Shown one piece after another: positions 12,540-31,915 of a stretch of DNA of 64,000 nucleotides. The translations under genes were made by a program, and so were the position numbers. The notes beneath the pieces were generated by a model that ran no database searches, was not told where the DNA came from, and saw nothing but the letters and a program-made list of their open reading frames with translations. This DNA is from Lobosporangium transversale (taxonomy: Eukaryota): assembly GCF_002105155.1 (NCBI RefSeq), contig NW_019028992.1:372001-436000 (forward strand), written 5' to 3'. Numbering within the stretch: position 1 is the first letter of the stretch; each line of letters opens with the position of its first letter.

Positions 12540-13893
12540 GCAGAGGAATCTTCCGTGAGTTTGTACTTTGCAGGTCTCTCCTGCCTCTCAATTTGAGCAA
12601 GACCGATTCTTGCGATGTTTTCCGCTCCTATTGCGTCACGGTCGAAGGATACCTTACAAGCACGGCAACATTTAGAGCGAGGGTACACCGTCTCTAAAAA
12701 GCTATCGCAGAGGGGTCGGGGACAGCGGGCGCTGGTGTAAAATCTGTGCGACCCTACAGCGAAGTGTCCTCGTGCTTTGACCTAAGTGTCTCAAATGGCA
12801 GTCGTTTATCGGCAAGGGCTCTATGGCTTTCCAGCTTTTCTTATTTTTTAAAAAAAGTCATGTCTCGTTATAACAGTGTGCTTGCTGGAAACTCCTTTAT
12901 TACTTTCAAAGGGCCCTAGGCCTACGACAAGCATTCCTTTTTCCCCGAGCATCTTCAACACTCGCTGCACCGCGTAGTCGAACGTAGCTCGTTGAACCTC
13001 TCGTAAGTTCCATTTTTTTAGGTGCCATCGGAACTCATAGAACTCTTGAAGCACATCCAAATTCTTTGATCCTGTCTGGGACTCCTCGTTCACCCATTGA
13101 AAGTACTCATTGTACGTATCCCTTTCAAACACAGGGATGGCGCTCTCATCTCAATCATTCCTTTTTCACGCTTCCTTTTGTTCAACAGGTGATTGAAGCG
13201 GAGGACGGGAAGGTACAGGAACCTGCTTCTCACCTTCACCGTTTGTCGCAAGTTAGGGTTGTGAGGGTCCAGCGAGGAAAACCTAAAGGCGTTAACAATA
13301 CCAGGATCGCATCTGACGATAGTTGTGGTGTTTGCGGATGGGCATCGCTCTGGTTCGTTGAATGTGAGCTCAACGTTTTCAAGCAGTTTGGAGCTCCTCT
13401 TCCAGTTTAAGTTTGCGTAGTCTTCATCTGTCAGGTCTTCACCGGCTGCCTTTGAACACGTCGTGTTGAGAAATCCCTGAGAAAGCTCCAGTTCTTGGCT
13501 GGAGTCTTCTTCATCTACATCAGACTGCCGCTGTCTCGTCGTCTGGGTTGTGTCATAGGCGAGTAGATTCAAAACAAGGCCGTTAGTAGAAATCGTTCCT
13601 TTGAGGTTGAACCGAGTTATATCTTTGTCCTGCGACTGCAGGGATACTTTGTCTCGATATCCATGAACCATGCGATCACCTCCAATCTCACAAAAGAGAG
13701 CCTGTATCAAAACTCCTTTTGTTCCCTGTACACATTCAAACATTGCAGTCTTGGAAGGATTGTCGAGAGGCAGAATACGCTCCAGTAGCTGCTTGGTATC
13801 TTCGTTCGCCCAGAGGATGTCAACTAGGGCGTGTTCAGACAGATACACATACCCCGGGTGACCAGAAGGTTGTAGAGAAGTCTGAGTATATTT
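12540..13893 (-). mobile_element. Decayed Fanzor (eukaryotic TnpB-family RuvC nuclease) gene, C-terminal ~430 codons
   Basis: In order: GTISTNG, RuvC-I IVRCDPG, VVGLGPF, RuvC-II position GSHRFYTS followed by CPRPLC, CRAC zinc-finger half, RuvC-III DRDAIGAENIARI, then ERP. Frameshifts near 13130 and 12855. Confidence 0.8.
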
Positions 13894-13966
13894 TCACTCT
13901 TTTGTTCTCCCGCAAAAAAACTCAATGTCGCTCATATCTTCATTAATTTTCTTGACATCGAACTAG

Positions 13967-13998
<32 letters not shown>

Positions 13999-14325
13999 GA
14001 ATAGAGAGCATTTGATCGCAGAATATGCATGAAAATACTCTACTCAAGGTTATACCATTGCGTTCCTGTAGTGCTACCTCAAGTAAAGCTCGGTTTCTTC
14101 AAGTGAAAGTGAATAGTGTGAATGAATGTGTACGTGAGAATTTTTTTTGCTGGATAAAATATGAAGGCAGAGGAGGAGTAGTCAAAATCACACAGGCTGT
14201 AGACGGCCACCATTTTAGGCACGACTGCCTTACGGCGCGTCCGCTGGCTGGTCAAATGTTTGTGGCACAATCAATTTAATCCCATCCATAAAAATAGCAC
14301 TTCGCGTCGCGAGAAGCAAAAAGAT

Positions 14326-14398
14326 TGGAGAATGAGAGACTTGAACTCCCGACCTTCCGCTTTGGAGACGGACGCGCTGCCAATTGCGCCAATCCTCC
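14326..14398 (-). tRNA. tRNA-Trp (anticodon CCA), intronless
   Basis: GGAGGATTGGCGCAATTGGCAGCGCGTCCGTCTCCAAAGCGGAAGGTCGGGAGTTCAAGTCTCTCATTCTCCA folds as a cloverleaf: acceptor GGAGGAT/ATTCTCC, anticodon stem TCCGT/GCGGA with loop CTCCAAA, T-loop TTCAAGT. A TTTTT Pol III terminator follows 3 nt downstream. Confidence 0.93.
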
Positions 14399-14543
14399 TT
14401 TTTATAGGACTTGTCGTAGAGCATCTACTAGTGATCTCTGGAAACTAGTAGGTAATGATGAAAAATGAAGAATTGGGCAAGAGCCTCGTGGTTTTGGGAT
14501 ACGATAGTGATCCTAAGTAATGCTTTGAATGATTTTGAGGATG

Positions 14544-14667
14544 CTGCAAAAGGGCATCGATAATAAGAAGAGAGATCTTTAATAACTGCTAATTTTCTGA
14601 GAATTCATAATGAGAATAATGAAGATAAACTCACCTGCAAAAGGGCATCGATAATAAGAAGAGAGAT
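14544..14667 (+). repeat. Perfect 33-bp direct repeat (period 91 bp) at the 5' end of the retroelement
   Basis: CTGCAAAAGGGCATCGATAATAAGAAGAGAGAT at 14544-14576 and 14635-14667; diverged third copy begins at 17970. Confidence 0.9.
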
Positions 14668-17600
14668 GCCGTTTTTGCAGTGAAGGAAAAAGCTACTTAA
14701 ATACTATTTAAAAATGGTAGAAAATAGGATGATAGGAAATAAATAAATTGAAAGGAAATACATATTTAGGTAAATGAATAGGCGTCATTTACGACAGACT
14801 GACGTGGAAAGATCTGTCAATGATCCCAAAGATTGACAGAAAATGAACAAAATGATAATAAAAAGTTGGACGAAGTGCCAAAAGATAAATTCATAAATGG
14901 ACAAGCCCAATGCCCAGCTCATCCCAAAGGTGCTGTATAGAATTTCGGCCCAAATGTTGCCACCAAAGTTCCTACAGAAGATGACTGGTAAGTATATGTC
15001 ACTGTGTAAGCGGAAAGCACGTATGCCATCAACTACGCCAAACAGCATTATGAACCACAATAGATTGTATGCCATCAAAGACTTGGCGAACGCTCAAGCG
15101 GAAGAACAAATATCTACCCTGGCGCTTCGACTTAATGACAGCAATGTAATGGGACGGATATGTCGGACACGAGTACTGATGCTGCAGCACAGGAATAAGA
15201 TGGAAGTCTCGCCAACTTTGGAGCCACATCGTGTCAAAAAGTATCGCCACAACTTTATATCGAATGTTTGTGAAGAAATGAAGAATCGTAACATTACTTT
15301 CGACCTATCGATCGCAGCCGAATTTGGTCTCCCACACAACGCTCTCTCGACATGGAAATGGCTAAACGGAGAATTACCACACGTATGCAAGGCGCTCACC
15401 AAGCGTATGGTATACTTTGTGGATCAAATACTTACGGATGATAAGGAGGACATGATCTCATGGCACGCATTCAGGACCCGTTACGGAGGGCCTAAAGTTT
15501 CGCCATTCTGGTTCAACCAACTTCAAAACTTTTGCTTCGACAACGATTATGTGGGTAGACATGCAAGAGAATGGAACAGGAGGAAACTGGCACTCTTAGA
15601 CGTCAGTGATGATGACAGCAACAGCGACAGTAGTTATGTCAGCTCGGTAGACGGGGATACAGAAGACGAAGATCGAGAAGCGATTCGTGCACTCAACCAA
15701 TTCATAAAGGATGAGGCAGCGAACAGAACTTTGACAGTATCACCGGCTAATCAAGCTGTTGAGCCACTAATTGGAATTAAGTGGATTCTAGATCAACAGA
15801 AGGAGCGGAAAAAGAGACGAGAAGCTGTTATGAAAGAGGCGCGCAGAGCAACCAGAGAACATAATCTTAGGCGACAAAGAGCAAAGTTAGATGCCATAGT
15901 CAGAAGAGCAGAACGCCACCAGGACCGAGAGCGAAGGCATGGTGAACGCATGCGAGCCCGCGAAGAAGCGAGGAGACGCCGGACCCAGAACACAAGGAGA
16001 TATGAGGGTCTGAGCGAGCAAGCTCTGCTAAGGAGAGCAAAAGTCGACCTGGATTCCAACGAGACACCGTGCCTAAAAGTGATCCCTGAAGTCAACAGAG
16101 GCCTAGCCAGGGACACAAATGGAGTTATCATTAGCGCCAATACCGAGGAGAAAATCCAACGCCAAAGGGAACGGTACAATACCCAGCCGGGTAATGTCAT
16201 TTATACGGATGGATCTCTCAAAGATATTGGCACTGAAAGAGTAAGTATGGCATTTGGTGTGGTAGTCCAGACACAAGAGGGTGAGTTTTACACTGCGCTA
16301 TCTGGTAGAGTAGCAGGCAACGCATCCTCGACAAAGGCAGAGCTAGCTGGTTTGTTGGCAGGAATACTTATCAGCCCACGAAACAGATCTATGACAATCC
16401 GACTTGATAACAGCGCAGTTGTGACTCAATTCCGAGCATTGGTCCGAGGCAGAGTGGATAGCACGTTGCGACAACGTATTAGATCACCGTATGCAGTATG
16501 GTGGGCAGCTATACACAACGCATTTATTCAACAAGGATCGGAAGTCACGGTCGAGTGGGTCAAAGGACATGCCGGCAACAGAGGGAACGAAGAAGCGGAC
16601 GAAGCAGCAAAACATGGACATTATGGCGAGCTATGGGATATCAACATAACGGAGCATAATGACATGTACTGCCATGCAAAGTTCAACGGTGTACCAGCGG
16701 AAGATGACTTAAGGCAGATCCTTAAGTTACAGTCAACAACTCGTACACATCACACGTGGATCGCTCAGAACAGGACGCAGGAGCATGTTAAGGATTGGAC
16801 AAAAATTGATTGGCGAGCTACTATGAACATTGTTCATGATAGCAACCTACCGAAAGGACTCTTCACCAGCCCAGCGGACTGCCAAAAGCGAGCGCACAGG
16901 ATCAAGAAACTCCATGGAATGTTGCCTACACAGTCATATATGAGACACTGGAGGCCAGACCTTTATGAAGACGGCAACTGCAGAGTGTGTGGGACAGAGG
17001 ATGAAGACACATCGCACATCTGGAGATGTCCAAGGACGATGGAGACTCAGGCCGAGAAGTGGAAGGAGATAATCCAAAATGTGAATGTGATAGGGGAGAG
17101 GACATGGAGGAAAGAGTTGAAAGCAGTGCAGGAGCAAGCACAAAGGGCCAGAGAGAGGTGTAGACCCACCAAGGACAAAAGAGCCAACTTTTACTGCGGC
17201 AGAGGAGGACTACATTTGGAAAACTCTGGAGATGCATATCGATGGTGTGCGAGAAGTACGACGCCATGGTGATAGGAACGGCGATGATGAGGAAGAGAGA
17301 GAGCACACACCAGATTGGTCTGTGCAAGACATTTACCATGGACTTACGCCCAAGTCCATTGCTCAGAGTTGGAAAGTTGGCTTCAAGACAACAACAAGGA
17401 TAGCTACATATATGGCAGGGCGCTTCGTCAAGGCCATAGAGGAATTCGGTCGTACAGAAATCTGGAACAAACGGTGTAAAGTTACTGTTGAATGGGAAAA
17501 GGCTCGTGGAATCACTGCTATGAGCAAACGCGCTAGAGGACGCAACTGTGTTGGGGAGCACAGACGTAGTAGCAATGATTTCCTTGTCCCTTCCCTCAGA

Positions 17601-19699: not shown

Positions 19700-21910
19700 T
19701 TACTTTTTCTCTTCAACAACAGTGACAGGGACAGGCTCGGGTACAACGCCAGATGTGACGATGGACTCAGTCTGCACAACTGTCTCCTCAGCAGCTCGCT
19801 CCATTTTGACCTCTTCAGTGTGCGTGGCTGAAACCTCAACGACTTTGCCAGTTCTTAAGATTTTGTTGTCTGATTCCACATCAACTCCAATGGCAGCTAA
19901 GGTTATTGACATAATGTTAATAAAGTTTTAGTGTTAGAAATATGAAGCAAAGCATTACATTGTGTGATAAAGAGTGTTGAATAAGTGTAGTCTTCCTGCC
20001 ACTTACCAGCTTCCTTGGTCAAAGTCTCGATTTCTTCCTTGTCAATCGCACCCTCTGCATCCTATAGTCACAAAGACGCAAGTGAAAGAACATTAGTTAT
20101 AACAATGCAGTAACCCAAACAAACTATTAAGCACGAGGTGGTAGTAAATCTTCTCACATACCTTAGTATCATCTCCCGAGTCAGATCCAGAGGAGGATGA
20201 GGAAGAGTCGGGTTTGTAATCCTCATCTGACTCACCATCCGACTAGACCATTGTAATGTCAGGAATGTTGAGAACAAGGTCGAAAGAAGAGCATATAGAG
20301 AGATAAGTAAAATGGATTGTTCGTTTCAATTAATACTGACATTAAGTACATGCATGCTGAGATTTACAACGAAAACTTACACTGAGATCATCAAGGATAG
20401 TCTTTCCTTCGCTACCAACAGCCACACCGACGGCAGAAGCGGCTTCCTTCTTGGCCTGCTTCTCCTTCAACTTCTTCTCTTCCTTTTCCTGCTTCTCCTT
20501 CAACTTCTTCTCCTTCTTTTCCTGTTTCTCCTTTAACTTCTTTTCTTTCTTTTCTTTCTTCGCTGCCTTCTTTGCCTCGTCATCGCTGTCACTGTCGTTA
20601 CAGTCTTTCTTGATATTGGTCCTGCTGCCGCCAAAAAGACCAAGCCTCTCGAAGAAACCAGGCTTCTTTTCTTTTTGTGCCTTCTTCTTTTCTTTTTCGG
20701 CCTTTTTGGCCTTTTTGGCTTCTTCATCCAGATTCTCGTCGTCGCTGTTAGAGCTGCTAGAGTCCTCACCATCCTTGTCTTTCTTTTCCTTCTTTTCCTT
20801 CTTTCCCTTCTTTTCCTTCTTTTCCTTCTTTTCCTTCTTTTCCTTCTCTTTCTTCTCTTTCTTCTCCTTCTTCTCCTTCAATTTTTTCTCCTTCTTGTCC
20901 TCCTTATCCTTCTTTTCCTCCTTCTTCTCCTCCTCAGATTTTTCGGCCTTCTTGGCTTGGTCACCCAACTGCTCACCCAACTGCTCATCGCCGCAGCTAG
21001 CGCTGCTGGGATCCTCACCTTCTTTCTTGTCCTCCAACAATTCCTTCTCCTCTTTCTCGACATTCTTTACCTTTTTGGCTTCCTCATCCAACTGCTCATC
21101 CTCGCTGTCAGAGCTGCTAGAACTGCTAGAACTGCTAGAACTGCTTGAACTGCTTGAACTGCTAGAGCTGCTTGAGCTGCTGCAACTGCCACTGTCGGAT
21201 TCTTCGCCATCGTTCTTTTCCTTCTTCTCCTTCTTCAGCAGCTTTTTCTTCTCCTTTTCAGCTTTCTTAGCCTTCTTAGCCTCCTCATCTAACTGATCAT
21301 CATCGCTGCCAGAGCCCTCGCTGTCTTTTTTGTCTTTCTTCTCCTTCTTCTCCTTCTTCAACAGCTTTTTCCTTTCTTTCTCTTCCTTTTTAGCCTTTTT
21401 GGCCTCTTCATCCAACTGTTCATCGTCACTGCCAGAGCCGCTGCTAGAACCTTCGTCATCCTTCTTGTCCTTCTTCTCCTTTAGTTTCTTTTCTTTTTTC
21501 TCCAGCTTCTTCTTTTCCTTCTCAGCCTTCTTGGCCTTCTTGGCCTCTTCATCCAACTGTTCGTCATTGCTGCTGGAGCTACCGATGTCATTATCGTCAC
21601 CACATGAGGCCTTGATGTCCTTGGTTTCTTCCTTGGAGAGAATGATTGTTGAGGCGGAAGCACTGCCTGTAACTTGGGAAGACGAAGATGACTCGACTGT
21701 GACTGAGGTGGCGGAGAATTGACGCTCAAACGACGCGGACTGAGTGGTGGTGATAGTCTCAGTGGTGGTAGTGGAGGCTACAGATTCAGTATCGTTGATG
21801 ACGGTAGTGCTGCTGGCGGTCAAGACGGCAGGGTCCTTGACCTCAACAGTTTCGACGGTAGTTTGGACCGTAGAATGGACCTTGGGTTCTGTGCCAATAA
21901 TCTCGGACAT
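19700..21910 (-). CDS. Low-complexity, Lys/Glu/Ser-rich repeat protein of unknown function
   Basis: Exons 21910-20381, 20242-20162, 20061-20007, 19896-19700 join in frame with GT..AG boundaries. T/S/V-rich ends flank repeated DDEQLDEEAKKAKKAEKEKKK modules. Confidence 0.75.
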
Positions 21911-22508
21911 GATTTATTTGAGGTGTGAGTATGAGACAGGGGTTTGTAGAAGTGAGGAGTAAGAGTAAGGTAGATGGTATGGGCGATAAGGTCGGGTGCT
22001 AATAAAAAAGAGGAAAGAAGGGGAATGAGGAAAAGAGCGTCTTTTTTTATACTCCAGGAGTAAAATTGGGTGGCAAGACAGTTGAAGAGAGGTTGTGATT
22101 GGGGTACTATTTTATTGACTGTGAGAAATCTTGAAAGAAGAAGATGGAAAGAGTTTAAAGAAAGCACATGTGTCTGCTTGGATCAAATTGAACGGAGGTA
22201 GTCTATTGGTATAGTTACACAAACACTGGTTGGTACAATCGCTCAGGTCAGCCGAGCACGACTCCTGTCTTCACACACTTTTCTCACTCTCCGAGCATCC
22301 ACAGCTCCACAGCTGAATTGAAAGGTAAACTAAATATAGATTCATAAGATTTTCGGGAAGACGGCACGTCGTGCATTTTATCTTCCTCATACGAAGACGT
22401 ATTATACATGTATTTTAACTGTAACTGCGATATGTATTTGAACACTTGCTATGCCTGGATTTCACCATTTGTTCCCTTGTTAGTCATGTGCTACACAAAT
22501 AAAGTGAG

Positions 22509-29792: not shown

Positions 29793-31915
29793 ATGTCACA
29801 CCCTTCACACCAGGTCGGCACCAATGCCAGTACGACCGAAGAAGTTCAAGACCTGTCCAAAGCCTCAACACAGTCCCCTGCGCTCCCATCTAGTGAGAAC
29901 CATGTGGAACATCCGAAGGAGATAGATGGTTTTGCCACCATCACTAATGCAGGAACTACTGTGCCTGTCGAGTCCATGACGACTTCATCTCCTGCTGCTA
30001 ATCATACAGGCGGTGCCAGGCGACGTCTGGCACTCTCATCGAACCGTCTGCTCTCCTTGGATTTACTGCGTGGTCTTGCCATCTTTATCATGATTACAGT
30101 TAACGCTCAAAATGGACCTGTGGTTTTCCCAATCCTTTGTAAGGGAATACTATTTTGAAGATTGTACAGGCCTGTGTACTATTATAGTATATTCATTTTT
30201 TTTTTTTTTTTTTTTTTTTCTTTCCTCCTCACTTGTCTATTTTGCTGTCGCATAGCGCATCCTGAGTGGATTGGATTATCTATTGCAGGTACGGAATTGT
30301 AATACCGATGACATGTGATGACATGATGATGAAGATTGGACGGAGGCACCAAATTTAACTTTTTTTTTTTATTCTTATAATCTCCATCCGTACAAAATCA
30401 TTAGACACGGTCTTTCCCAGTTTTTTGTTTATCACTGGTTGTACGATGCCTCTGTCAATCAGGGCAGCACCCAATTCGCCCAATAGTGTTTACATACGCC
30501 ACGCTATTCGCGTGTTCAAACGTTCACTCATCATTTGGGGTCTTGGCGTTATTCTTAACCTCTATGGTCTCGTCATTCTGAGTGCTCCTGCTAACCAGTT
30601 TCGCTGGCCCAATGTGCTGAACCGTATTGGATTCTGTTACCTGATCGTCGCTTGGATGCACGTTCTTGTCCTTTGGCGCGGTCGTCAACCCGAAAAGCCT
30701 CTCTCAGTTTCATATCTCTTCCCATCCTTATCCCAGCCTGCACGTCCACAAATCCATGAAGCAGATTCGAAGCGTGAACTGGAAGAGACTGCTGCTAATA
30801 ACGCTTCTACTACCCCTGCTGCACCTACCACAGGAGAGGACGATCACGGTGCATGGCCCTGGTTTGTAAGAGTAACCTTGCCTTACTACTTGCCTATTGC
30901 TTGCTTGGTCATCTGGCTCATCTGTACGTATAGTGTCCAGGTCGAGGGTTGCCCTGAGAAGGGTATGGTAGAGGTCCCGGAATGCAGTGCTCAGGCTTAC
31001 TTTGACCTTAGGATCTTTGGCAAGGCTCATACGTACCGTCACTTGGCCTTTGATCCTGAAGGAGCTCTGTCGACATTAACATCAATCCTTAATGTATGGC
31101 TCGGATGGTTTATTGGATGCACCGTCGTGGCGCTTAATGCTCAAGTCAAAGAAGTGAATAATGTTTTTAAGGCGCGCCATGAAGCGCTCAGCCATTCAGA
31201 GGAGCACGAGCAGTATCTTTTGGAGGAGGTTTTGGAGCAGGAGATCGTGACAAGGATCTATTCCGAACATTTGAGCCAATGGTTCTGGTGGGGTATCCTT
31301 TGGATGTTTGTTGGCTGGCTCGTCAGTTTGGGTATCCCATTATCCAAGCCAAGCTGGACCGCAACATTTGCAGTCGTAACCTCAGGCATCTCTCAGACAA
31401 TGCTCGCCATCTTGTTCTTCAAGTTTGATGCCCAGCCAAAGACGAAGCAGCTGCGTAAGCTGCACTTGGAACATCAGTTGACTTACCGATCTAATAACCA
31501 GCTCTCGCGTCATTATCACCATCGTCCTCAGGATGCTGAAGCTGCAGCCTCTGGCTCGGCACCTCTCAGGTCTAATTATTCAAGTGCATTGAATGTATAC
31601 TTCAAAGTGGATCACTTCTTCCGTCATTGGTTCCGTAAGGGTATCTTGTTGGTCTTGGGAAGCATGGGTCGTAATGCCATTCTTTTGTATATGTGCTCAG
31701 AACTTGTTCAAGGCACTTGCTATCTCGTACGTGCAGGACCTGCAGATCCCGAGACCGGTGAAAAATCGGATTTCTTTACTTACATCTTTTCAGTCACTTG
31801 GGGCAAAGCCGAGATTGGTGGCTGGGGTTCTTTACTCTTTTCATTGGGCTTTACATTCCTCCATGTTCTGCTGGCCATCTTCTTGGACTACAAGAAGTGG
31901 TACTTCAAGGTGTAA
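29793..31915 (+). CDS. HGSNAT/NagX-like multi-pass membrane glucosaminide N-acetyltransferase
   Basis: Exons 29793-30138, 30256-30288, 30405-31915. Motifs RLLSLDLLRGLAIFIMITVN, HPEWIGLSIADTVFPSFLFITG, RWPNVLNRIG, FDPEGALSTL, PLSKPSWT, MGRNAILLY, KKWYFKV. Confidence 0.85.

Follow-up and report, generated by a model that had tools for sequence, protein, structure and literature searches.

A decayed, truncated copy of a probable multi-copy Fanzor1-type gene in Lobosporangium transversale, with full-length relatives that carry a FEN1/EXO1-like head

We analyzed a candidate relic of a Fanzor gene, which would encode a eukaryotic TnpB-like RNA-guided nuclease, in 64,000 nucleotides of Lobosporangium transversale DNA (contig NW_019028992.1, positions 372,001 to 436,000 of the forward strand; this whole stretch is called the window, and its numbering is used throughout). 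The minus-strand segment 12403–13959 is very probably (about 0.88 by our estimate) one copy of a multi-copy gene of the Fanzor1 type, decayed and truncated at its 5' end, and is likely non-functional as a protein gene. The original prediction, made from the sequence alone, had assigned a Fanzor relic to 12540..13893. That identity held up, with Pfam PF07282, a family profile, published motif rules, and the modeled fold of a relative in agreement, and the limits had to be moved: in tblastn alignments of relatives against the window, homology spans 13959 to 12560, running past 13893 and reading through an in-frame TGA.

Three stop-to-stop open reading frames (ORFs) on the minus strand make up the core of the relic: 13090–13893 (267 amino acids, piece 1), 12848–13150 (100 amino acids, piece 2), and 12467–12781 (104 amino acids, piece 3). 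Direct reading gives the motif order CDPG, VVGLGPF, HRFYTSARC, CPRPLC...CRAC, and DRDAIGAENI, with the zinc-finger Cys codons at 12722–12724, 12707–12709, 12665–12667, and 12656–12658; the ordered RuvC-I, zinc-finger, and RuvC-III motifs all lie where they had first been placed. Order and spacing fit the Fanzor motif D-X(125,275)-[TS][TS]-X-X-C4-X(5,50)-RD (PMC3627910), the relic reading TSARC...C...C..C and then FDRD.

Relatives of the relic come from a single fungal phylum wherever a source name was available. A word-index search with the longest piece returned two longer proteins, P0001 (Lobosporangium transversale) and P0002 (Mortierella alpina), and the last ~100 residues of P0001 match the window almost exactly in blocks (identity in 88 of 137 columns, with 39 gaps). 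Searches seeded with P0002 and P0005 gave 7 and 27 proteins, respectively. In the P0005-seeded set, the 21 proteins of the 27 with a source name were all Mortierellomycota (Mortierella, Podila, Dissophora, Gamsiella, Entomortierella, and Linnemannia). A phmmer search with P0003 against 1.84 billion cluster representatives found 920 matches at E ≤ 0.001, 435 at ≤ 1e-10, and 98 at ≤ 1e-30; seven of ten long representatives had a source name, again all Mortierellomycota (two Entomortierella, Dissophora, Actinomortierella, two Mortierella, and Benniella). The closest protein to the relic was P0021, at tblastn E 4e-100 (13959–12560, 43% identical, 720 aa), and P0003 matched at E 1e-43. Automatic UniRef names of family members vary among "Cas12f1-like TNB domain-containing protein," "PIN domain-like protein," and "transposase." None of the family proteins scanned with Pfam had a match to a transposase domain, although Academ transposases may have no Pfam model.

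Profile searches and structure prediction both point to Fanzor. Piece 3 passes Pfam PF07282 (Cas12f1-like TNB) at E 4.3e-6, with 27.2 bits against a cut-off of 26.3, and the cut-off of the same model is exceeded by 13 of 21 relatives, by 2 of 6, and by 6 of 10 long representatives, where scores reach 57.3 bits. The NCBIfam model guided_TnpB (NF040570) matches the C-terminal 50–70 residues of six of seven relatives (E 2.9e-7 to 1.2e-4) and, weakly, piece 3 of the window (E 0.012), in both cases below its whole-protein cut-off. Against all sequences of the Protein Data Bank (PDB), a profile of 12 family members (A2) matched SpuFz1, the Fanzor of Spizellomyces punctatus (8gkh, E 0.0014), and a TnpB-like protein (8j3r, E 0.045); the profile stretch matching 8gkh (residues 807–870) falls in the part of the family equivalent to 12863–13146. 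The narrower family profile A1 reached SpuFz1 at E 3.4 only, and piece 3 alone had 0 phmmer matches in the PDB. An AlphaFold2 model of the 1186-residue relative P0003, built on a 29-row alignment (mean pLDDT 76.4, pTM 0.56), contains two long disordered stretches (348–427 and 792–912). Comparison of this model with the PDB by Foldseek, a check that had been proposed with the original prediction and that we ran on the relative, gave 96 matches at E ≤ 0.001, among which solved Fanzor1 structures rank best: Spizellomyces Fanzor 9cey (E 1.5e-11), 9ceu (7.3e-11, TM 0.59 on target), and 8gkh (1.4e-9), Parasitella Fanzor PpFz 9cf1 (8.1e-8), and Guillardia Fanzor GtFz 9cer (4.2e-7).

The active-site residues were compared with those published for Fanzor. 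Fanzor proteins are marked by DPG at RuvC-I and by a catalytic Glu that precedes the zinc finger by six residues (PMC10711439); their canonical RuvC-II Glu is replaced by Gly or Pro, and the alternative Glu is essential (PMC10530073). The relic has DPG (in CDPG) and the Gly-containing VGLGPF and lacks the alternative Glu, with Arg in its place, while its relatives read HEY(F/Y)TS at that site. The family to which the relic belongs is of the Fanzor1 lineage. Aligned to P0003 by tblastn, the relic covers residues ~656–1182, so that ~650 N-terminal residues are missing, in keeping with the absent N-terminus reported at the outset. Its features, all on the minus strand, are as follows.

12403..13959, minus: the whole relic, 3' part of a Fanzor1-type gene, corresponding to P0003 residues ~650–1186 (tblastn of P0021 and P0003/P0004/P0005; tail exon and stop from the sequence)
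13997..14079, minus: repeated segment upstream of the T31 tract, in the same repeat unit (contig depth and loose contig ends at 14079)
13966..13996, minus: T31 tract where the gene homology ends (homology end 13959)
13151..13959, minus: frame -2 part, end of the REC/WED-like region and RuvC-I (aligns with P0003 656–1014 and P0021 245–532)
13894..13896, minus: in-frame TGA within the homologous region (the tblastn alignment reads through "*")
13300..13308, minus: RuvC-I DPG motif with the Asp codon GAT at 13306–13308 (aligns with GIDPGE of relatives)
13147..13150, minus: frameshift by loss of 1 nt, from frame -2 to frame -1 (extra base in other copies)
12863..13146, minus: frame -1 part, helical insert of the RuvC domain and VVGLGPF (aligns with P0003 1016–1106)
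12908–12928, minus: VVGLGPF, with Gly at the probable canonical RuvC-II Glu position
12782..12859, minus: remnant of a phase-0 intron, acceptor TTAG kept at 12782–12785 (donor and last four exon codons, ~16 nt, deleted)
12506..12781, minus: exon with the alternative-Glu site, zinc finger, and RuvC-III (Pfam PF07282; aligns with P0003 1107–1182)
12743..12745, minus: AGA (Arg) at the alternative catalytic Glu position, six residues before the first Cys
12656..12724, minus: C4 zinc finger, C-x4-C ... C-x2-C (conserved in alignments A1, A2, and A4)
12635..12643, minus: RuvC-III DRD, followed by AIGAENI
12415..12505, minus: putative second intron (GTAAGT 12500–12505, ACTAAC 12431–12436, TTACAG 12415–12420)
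12403..12414, minus: putative last exon (INK; ATC AAC AAA TAG), with TAG at 12403–12405 coinciding with the repeat boundary

The RuvC-III region belongs to one of the two most conserved stretches of the family, which reads RDxVGSENI. Upstream of the T31 tract lie ~330 nt and then a tRNA-Trp gene (14326–14398).

We placed contigs of four public runs of the same organism (X1, X2, X4, and X7, from four studies) on 12000–14500. The switch from frame -2 to -1 at 13147–13150 sits within continuous tblastn homology, and one more base is present there in contigs of other copies: X1 has it at 13147 (3658.8 of 6116.5 summed depth), and X2 and X7 have it at 13149 (175.6 of 175.6 and 443.3 of 443.3, respectively). 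The switch is a real loss of 1 nt. An intron was considered as an explanation of this frame change and rejected, as the site has no room for one and no splice sites. The original prediction had counted two frameshifts. Pieces 2 and 3 share frame -1 in the tblastn alignments, however, so there is a single frameshift, and the second break is a family intron that has lost its donor. We searched 11 soil-metagenome loci encoding relatives for this intron by script; both flanking anchors were found in eight, and all eight have a GT...AG phase-0 intron at the exact junction of pieces 2 and 3, between ...LV(T/Q)(K/R) and A(R/K)xLGY...HEY(F/Y)TS. The window lacks the ~16 nt that elsewhere encode ...LVTQ and then GTATGG (loose contig ends at 12856 and 12860), and upstream of the retained acceptor TTAG there is no GT within the intron remnant. 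All five stops that separate pieces 2 and 3 thus fall in the intron, and the lesion at this point is the lost donor. Some other copies read TTATGG at the donor and are thus decayed too. P0021 runs uninterrupted across the conserved intron position, so its source contig may be a spliced transcript or an intron-less copy.

In this copy the alternative catalytic Glu has been lost. Summed depth differs from the window at 12744 in 6358.9 of 6444.6 (X1), 432 of 432 (X2), 525.5 of 537.2 (X4), and 31.2 of 43.4 (X7), and at 12745 in 6342.6 of 6444.6, 432 of 432, 537.2 of 537.2, and 34.8 of 43.4, respectively; these differences turn AGA into GAA in nearly all other copies. Since relatives have HEY(F/Y)TS and other copies GAA, the ancestral gene had the alternative Glu, which is the ancestral and still the majority state at 12743–12745 in that genome. 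Mutation of the alternative Glu abolished cleavage in ApmFNuc (PMC10530073). The AGA noted at the outset where the RuvC-II Glu was expected was read correctly, and it occupies the alternative-Glu position. The relic retains both the Asp of the RuvC-I DPG motif and that of RuvC-III, as well as the C4 zinc finger. No counterpart of the FEN1/XPG-type head of its relatives (described below) was found upstream of 13959 when P0001–P0005 were aligned to the window by tblastn. With no start or front half, an internal stop, a frameshift, an intron that cannot be spliced, and Arg at the catalytic Glu, the relic is most likely inert as a gene, and the description of it as a dead copy is borne out.

The relic is one of a repeated family in this genome. 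Summed contig depth in X1 was 1,017–22,352 over 12336–14099 against 136.8 up to 12335 and 139.8 at 14100–14267, and over the relic it was 7–160 times that of the flanks; over 13997–14079 it was 2258–3916, against ~140 in the unique DNA beyond. Because summed contig depth is not copy number, we claim only that there are many copies. Dozens of short variant contigs are 85–99% identical. Transitions (C>T, T>C, G>A, A>G) predominate among their differences, which is consistent with old neutral decay or perhaps with deamination-type changes to repeats. Contigs from other copies depart from the window sequence at 12404 (X2, X4, X7) and at 14079 (X2, X7), which delimits a repeated unit of ~12404–14079 that includes the T31 tract and 83 nt beyond it. 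A check of the element ends thus yielded these shared boundaries and no target-site duplication. Repeats around 12300–14200, terminal inverted or direct, amounted to short matches of chance size, and tblastn found no second copy within the window. The expectation that better copies exist elsewhere in the genome was borne out in part: nearly all others have GAA, and some have the frame-restoring base and an intact GT donor, while neither an intact full-length copy nor an omega-RNA was found. P0001 (577 aa), the only gene model from the same lineage, is itself truncated.

Full-length relatives of the relic (1,000–1,360 aa) have a layout that could not be read from the window, beginning with a FEN1/EXO1-like 5' nuclease and continuing through a basic disordered linker, the Fanzor1 REC/WED region, and an acidic disordered loop to the RuvC domain with its zinc finger. 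The fusion was seen in P0003, P0004, P0009, P0016, P0018, P0025, P0028, and P0168, and it is kept across several Mortierellomycota genera. Its head of ~330 residues starts MG(L/Q)..(F/Y)F and carries the acidic motifs vDiDLLGT, hLDG..eK, C.(T/S)E(A/S)D, vvSgDSDl, and NDY..Ni.GlG, which are kept across genera at 33–37% identity. Searched against the PDB, the family profile matched FEN1 1a76 (E 2.4e-6 over residues 17–281) and many FEN1, EXO1, Rad2, and XPG chains; a family Asp aligns to FEN1 Asp86, and the acidic motifs stand at aligned metal-site positions. The P0003 model matched FEN1 3q8k (E 4.1e-9, TM 0.61) and EXO1 5v08 (E 1.7e-7) by Foldseek. P0168 (1281 aa) passes both Pfam XPG_I (28.9 against 24.9) and PF07282 (27.8 against 26.3), and P0127 is above the cut-off of Pfam XPG_I_2. 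In the ESM Atlas, residues 1–345 were nearest to XPG_N/XPG_I clusters (score 0.95), which we treat as a lead. On metagenome contig L008 the FEN-like part (492–1043) and the Fanzor part (1487–4238) are collinear on one strand. Because the profile, the model, the Pfam matches, and collinear L008 agree, the fusion is not an artifact of gene prediction. We did not find this pairing in the Fanzor literature searched, although supplements of the main Fanzor papers may list such proteins; the excerpted passages of PMC10432273, PMC10530073, PMC10711439, and PMC3627910 mention no such head domain.

An alternative that we consider unlikely is that the relic is a non-autonomous deletion derivative, supplying a guide RNA from its 3' end to the proteins of intact copies. 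The 3' end of the gene is kept right up to the repeat boundary at 12404, and the truncated form, including 13997–14079, itself seems to be repeated, with other copies ending at the same two boundaries, as would fit such a derivative. Spizellomyces also has "ghost" omega-RNA loci with no protein (Saito et al., PMC10432273). In addition, seven of the eight sequences that extend far enough (the window and seven loci) have a GTAAGT past the end of the ORF, 59–192 nt after the RPxKY codons and preceded by an A-rich lead-in; with the near-identical L003 and L004 taken together, six of seven independent sequences have it. This GTAAGT occurs in L002, L003/L004, L007, L008, L009, and the window (12500–12510), mostly beyond the stop codon, a position that suggests a conserved 3'-untranslated region (3'-UTR) intron or an RNA-processing signal. 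It is more simply read as the donor of a 3'-UTR intron than as a feature of an omega-RNA. Nucleotide comparison of the relic's 5' segment and 3' end with the 11 metagenome loci gave nothing beyond a 13-nt match at the GTAAGT. A short GC hairpin stands upstream of the GTAAGT in three loci; it lacks statistical support, with 0 pairs from RNAalifold and single-fold z-scores of -1.48 to +1.04. No conserved RNA structure thus speaks for a guide RNA, and Rfam finds the neighboring tRNA only.

Slightly more unlikely still, in our judgment, is that the family consists of lineage-specific, domesticated host genes for two-nuclease repair or defense proteins, of which the relic would be a pseudogenized paralogue. 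Such genes would account for the conserved introns and for the lack of any transposase, terminal inverted repeats, or target-site duplications among our findings, and some Fanzor loci do lack both inverted repeats and any link to a transposase (Saito et al., PMC10432273). Against this, very many diverged and decayed copies in one genome together with many fragmentary gene models per species form the pattern of a selfish repeat, and the boundaries at 12404 and 14079 are sharp and shared.

The remaining alternatives fare far worse. That the gene is intact and encodes a working short Fanzor, its breaks being introns or assembly errors, is very improbable: an intron does account for one of its two apparent breaks, and Fanzor genes carry introns, but the frame change without room for an intron, the deleted donor, the in-frame TGA, and Arg at the catalytic Glu all argue otherwise, and everything upstream of family residue ~650 has been replaced by the T31 tract and then a tRNA gene. 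That the motifs reflect chance or an unrelated zinc-ribbon family is hardly credible, for although piece 3 alone has no PDB match and its Pfam score is 0.9 bits above the cut-off, the 57.3 bits reached by family members on PF07282, the Fanzor1 fold of the P0003 model, and the tblastn E of 4e-100 contradict it.

Several points weigh against our reading of the relic as a dead copy from a multi-copy, once active Fanzor1 family. The fold match comes from the model of a Mortierella alpina relative that is 33–43% identical to the relic, and not from the relic itself. Rfam on 11500–15000 matches the tRNA and no omega-RNA, no terminal repeats or target-site duplication were found at the relic, and summed contig depth does not translate into a number of copies. 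No intact full-length copy from this organism was present among the contigs and gene models examined, and the TTATGG donors of some other copies mean that every member of the family in this genome may be dead. The 3' end that remains may also give rise to a shortened transcript or an RNA product.

Comparison with known systems helps to place the family. SpuFz1 (8gkh, 9ceu–9cez; PMC10432273) resembles it in DPG, Gly at the canonical RuvC-II position, the C4 zinc finger, RD, introns, a basic disordered stretch, and a Glu six residues before the zinc finger, the last found in the family and not in the relic. Unlike SpuFz1, the window copy is dead and has no front part. SpuFz1 chains have 590–607 residues, and the full-length relatives are about twice that size, with the FEN1/EXO1-like head and an acidic disordered loop of ~120 residues in addition; in the structural alignment with the P0003 model, sequence identity is only 11–13%. 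Bacterial TnpB (IS200/IS605, IS607) and Cas12f share the split RuvC fold and the zinc-ribbon (TNB) domain with the family, which differs from them in being eukaryotic and intron-bearing, with a rearranged Glu and no TnpA partner, and their models match it over the last 50–70 residues only. Introns are known from other Fanzor genes (PMC10530073), and Fanzor1 genes and remnants are common in early-diverging fungi (PMC3627910).

The head resembles FEN1, EXO1, and XPG/Rad2 in predicted fold, profile, and acidic motifs at the presumed metal site, and differs from them in being fused to a Fanzor core; the window copy lacks it. In AcademX elements (Kojima 2020), the nuclease is reportedly XPG-type, and Academ elements have a DDE transposase. 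The family would then share with AcademX a mobile-element protein with an XPG-type nuclease, while its partner here is a TnpB-like RuvC nuclease. AcademX DNA transposons encode their nuclease beside the transposase (PMC10045372). An RNA-guided nuclease has also been joined artificially to a 5' or 3' exonuclease in a single chain, and the natural pairing differs in being conserved across genera; when TREX1, TREX2, and T5 exonuclease were fused to MmeFz2, all of them impaired it (PMC12923547).

The surroundings of the relic are otherwise ordinary. The window has a GC content of 34–47% and contains typical fungal genes, including SPX/VTC, RPS17, an aminoacyl-tRNA synthetase, an F-box/WD40 protein, a kinase, RPL23A, and a septin. 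The tRNA-Trp gene (anticodon CCA, 14326–14398, minus strand), ~370 nt upstream of the relic, is flanked by two repeats. The second repeat (14411–17269) includes an ORF of 791 aa (14897–17269, plus strand) with an RNase H match (E 2.2e-12), weak RVT_3 and zf-RVT matches, and no reverse-transcriptase core; because contig depth rises again from ~14411, it is probably a fragment of another repeated retroelement. ORFs at 20345–21913 (minus strand, 523 aa) and 30359–31912 (plus strand, 518 aa) had no Pfam match at E ≤ 0.001.

How the relic and its relatives may have worked can be sketched from these results. By membership in the Fanzor1 lineage, intact relatives would cut double-stranded DNA with their RuvC site under the guidance of an omega-RNA, as SpuFz1 does. 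The FEN1/EXO1-like head might then process the cut by resecting its 5' end or by removing a flap, and such processing could favor homology-directed copying of the element. The family probably is, or was, mobile, and the relic would first have been truncated or internally deleted and then have decayed neutrally. That the lineage is mobile and RNA-guided is argued here by analogy, because we found no omega-RNA, terminal repeats, or target-site duplication. We therefore put forward only tentatively, as a possibility with well under even odds, that the relic is the fossil of an undescribed natural two-nuclease enzyme in which a FEN1/EXO1-type nuclease would act on the guided cut and channel repair into homology-directed copying of the element.

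Taken alone, the relic is ordinary, one more dead Fanzor copy in a fungus, and the fusion lineage is the interesting lead. The biological role of Fanzor, and how its cut is converted into propagation of the element, are open according to Saito et al. (PMC10432273), and a nuclease for end processing within the same protein would speak directly to that conversion. The natural fusion parallels the exonuclease fusions built by genome engineers (PMC12923547). If the proposal is true, the family would represent a homing module of a "cut and resect" kind that is complete in itself, and would offer a ready template for editing tools.

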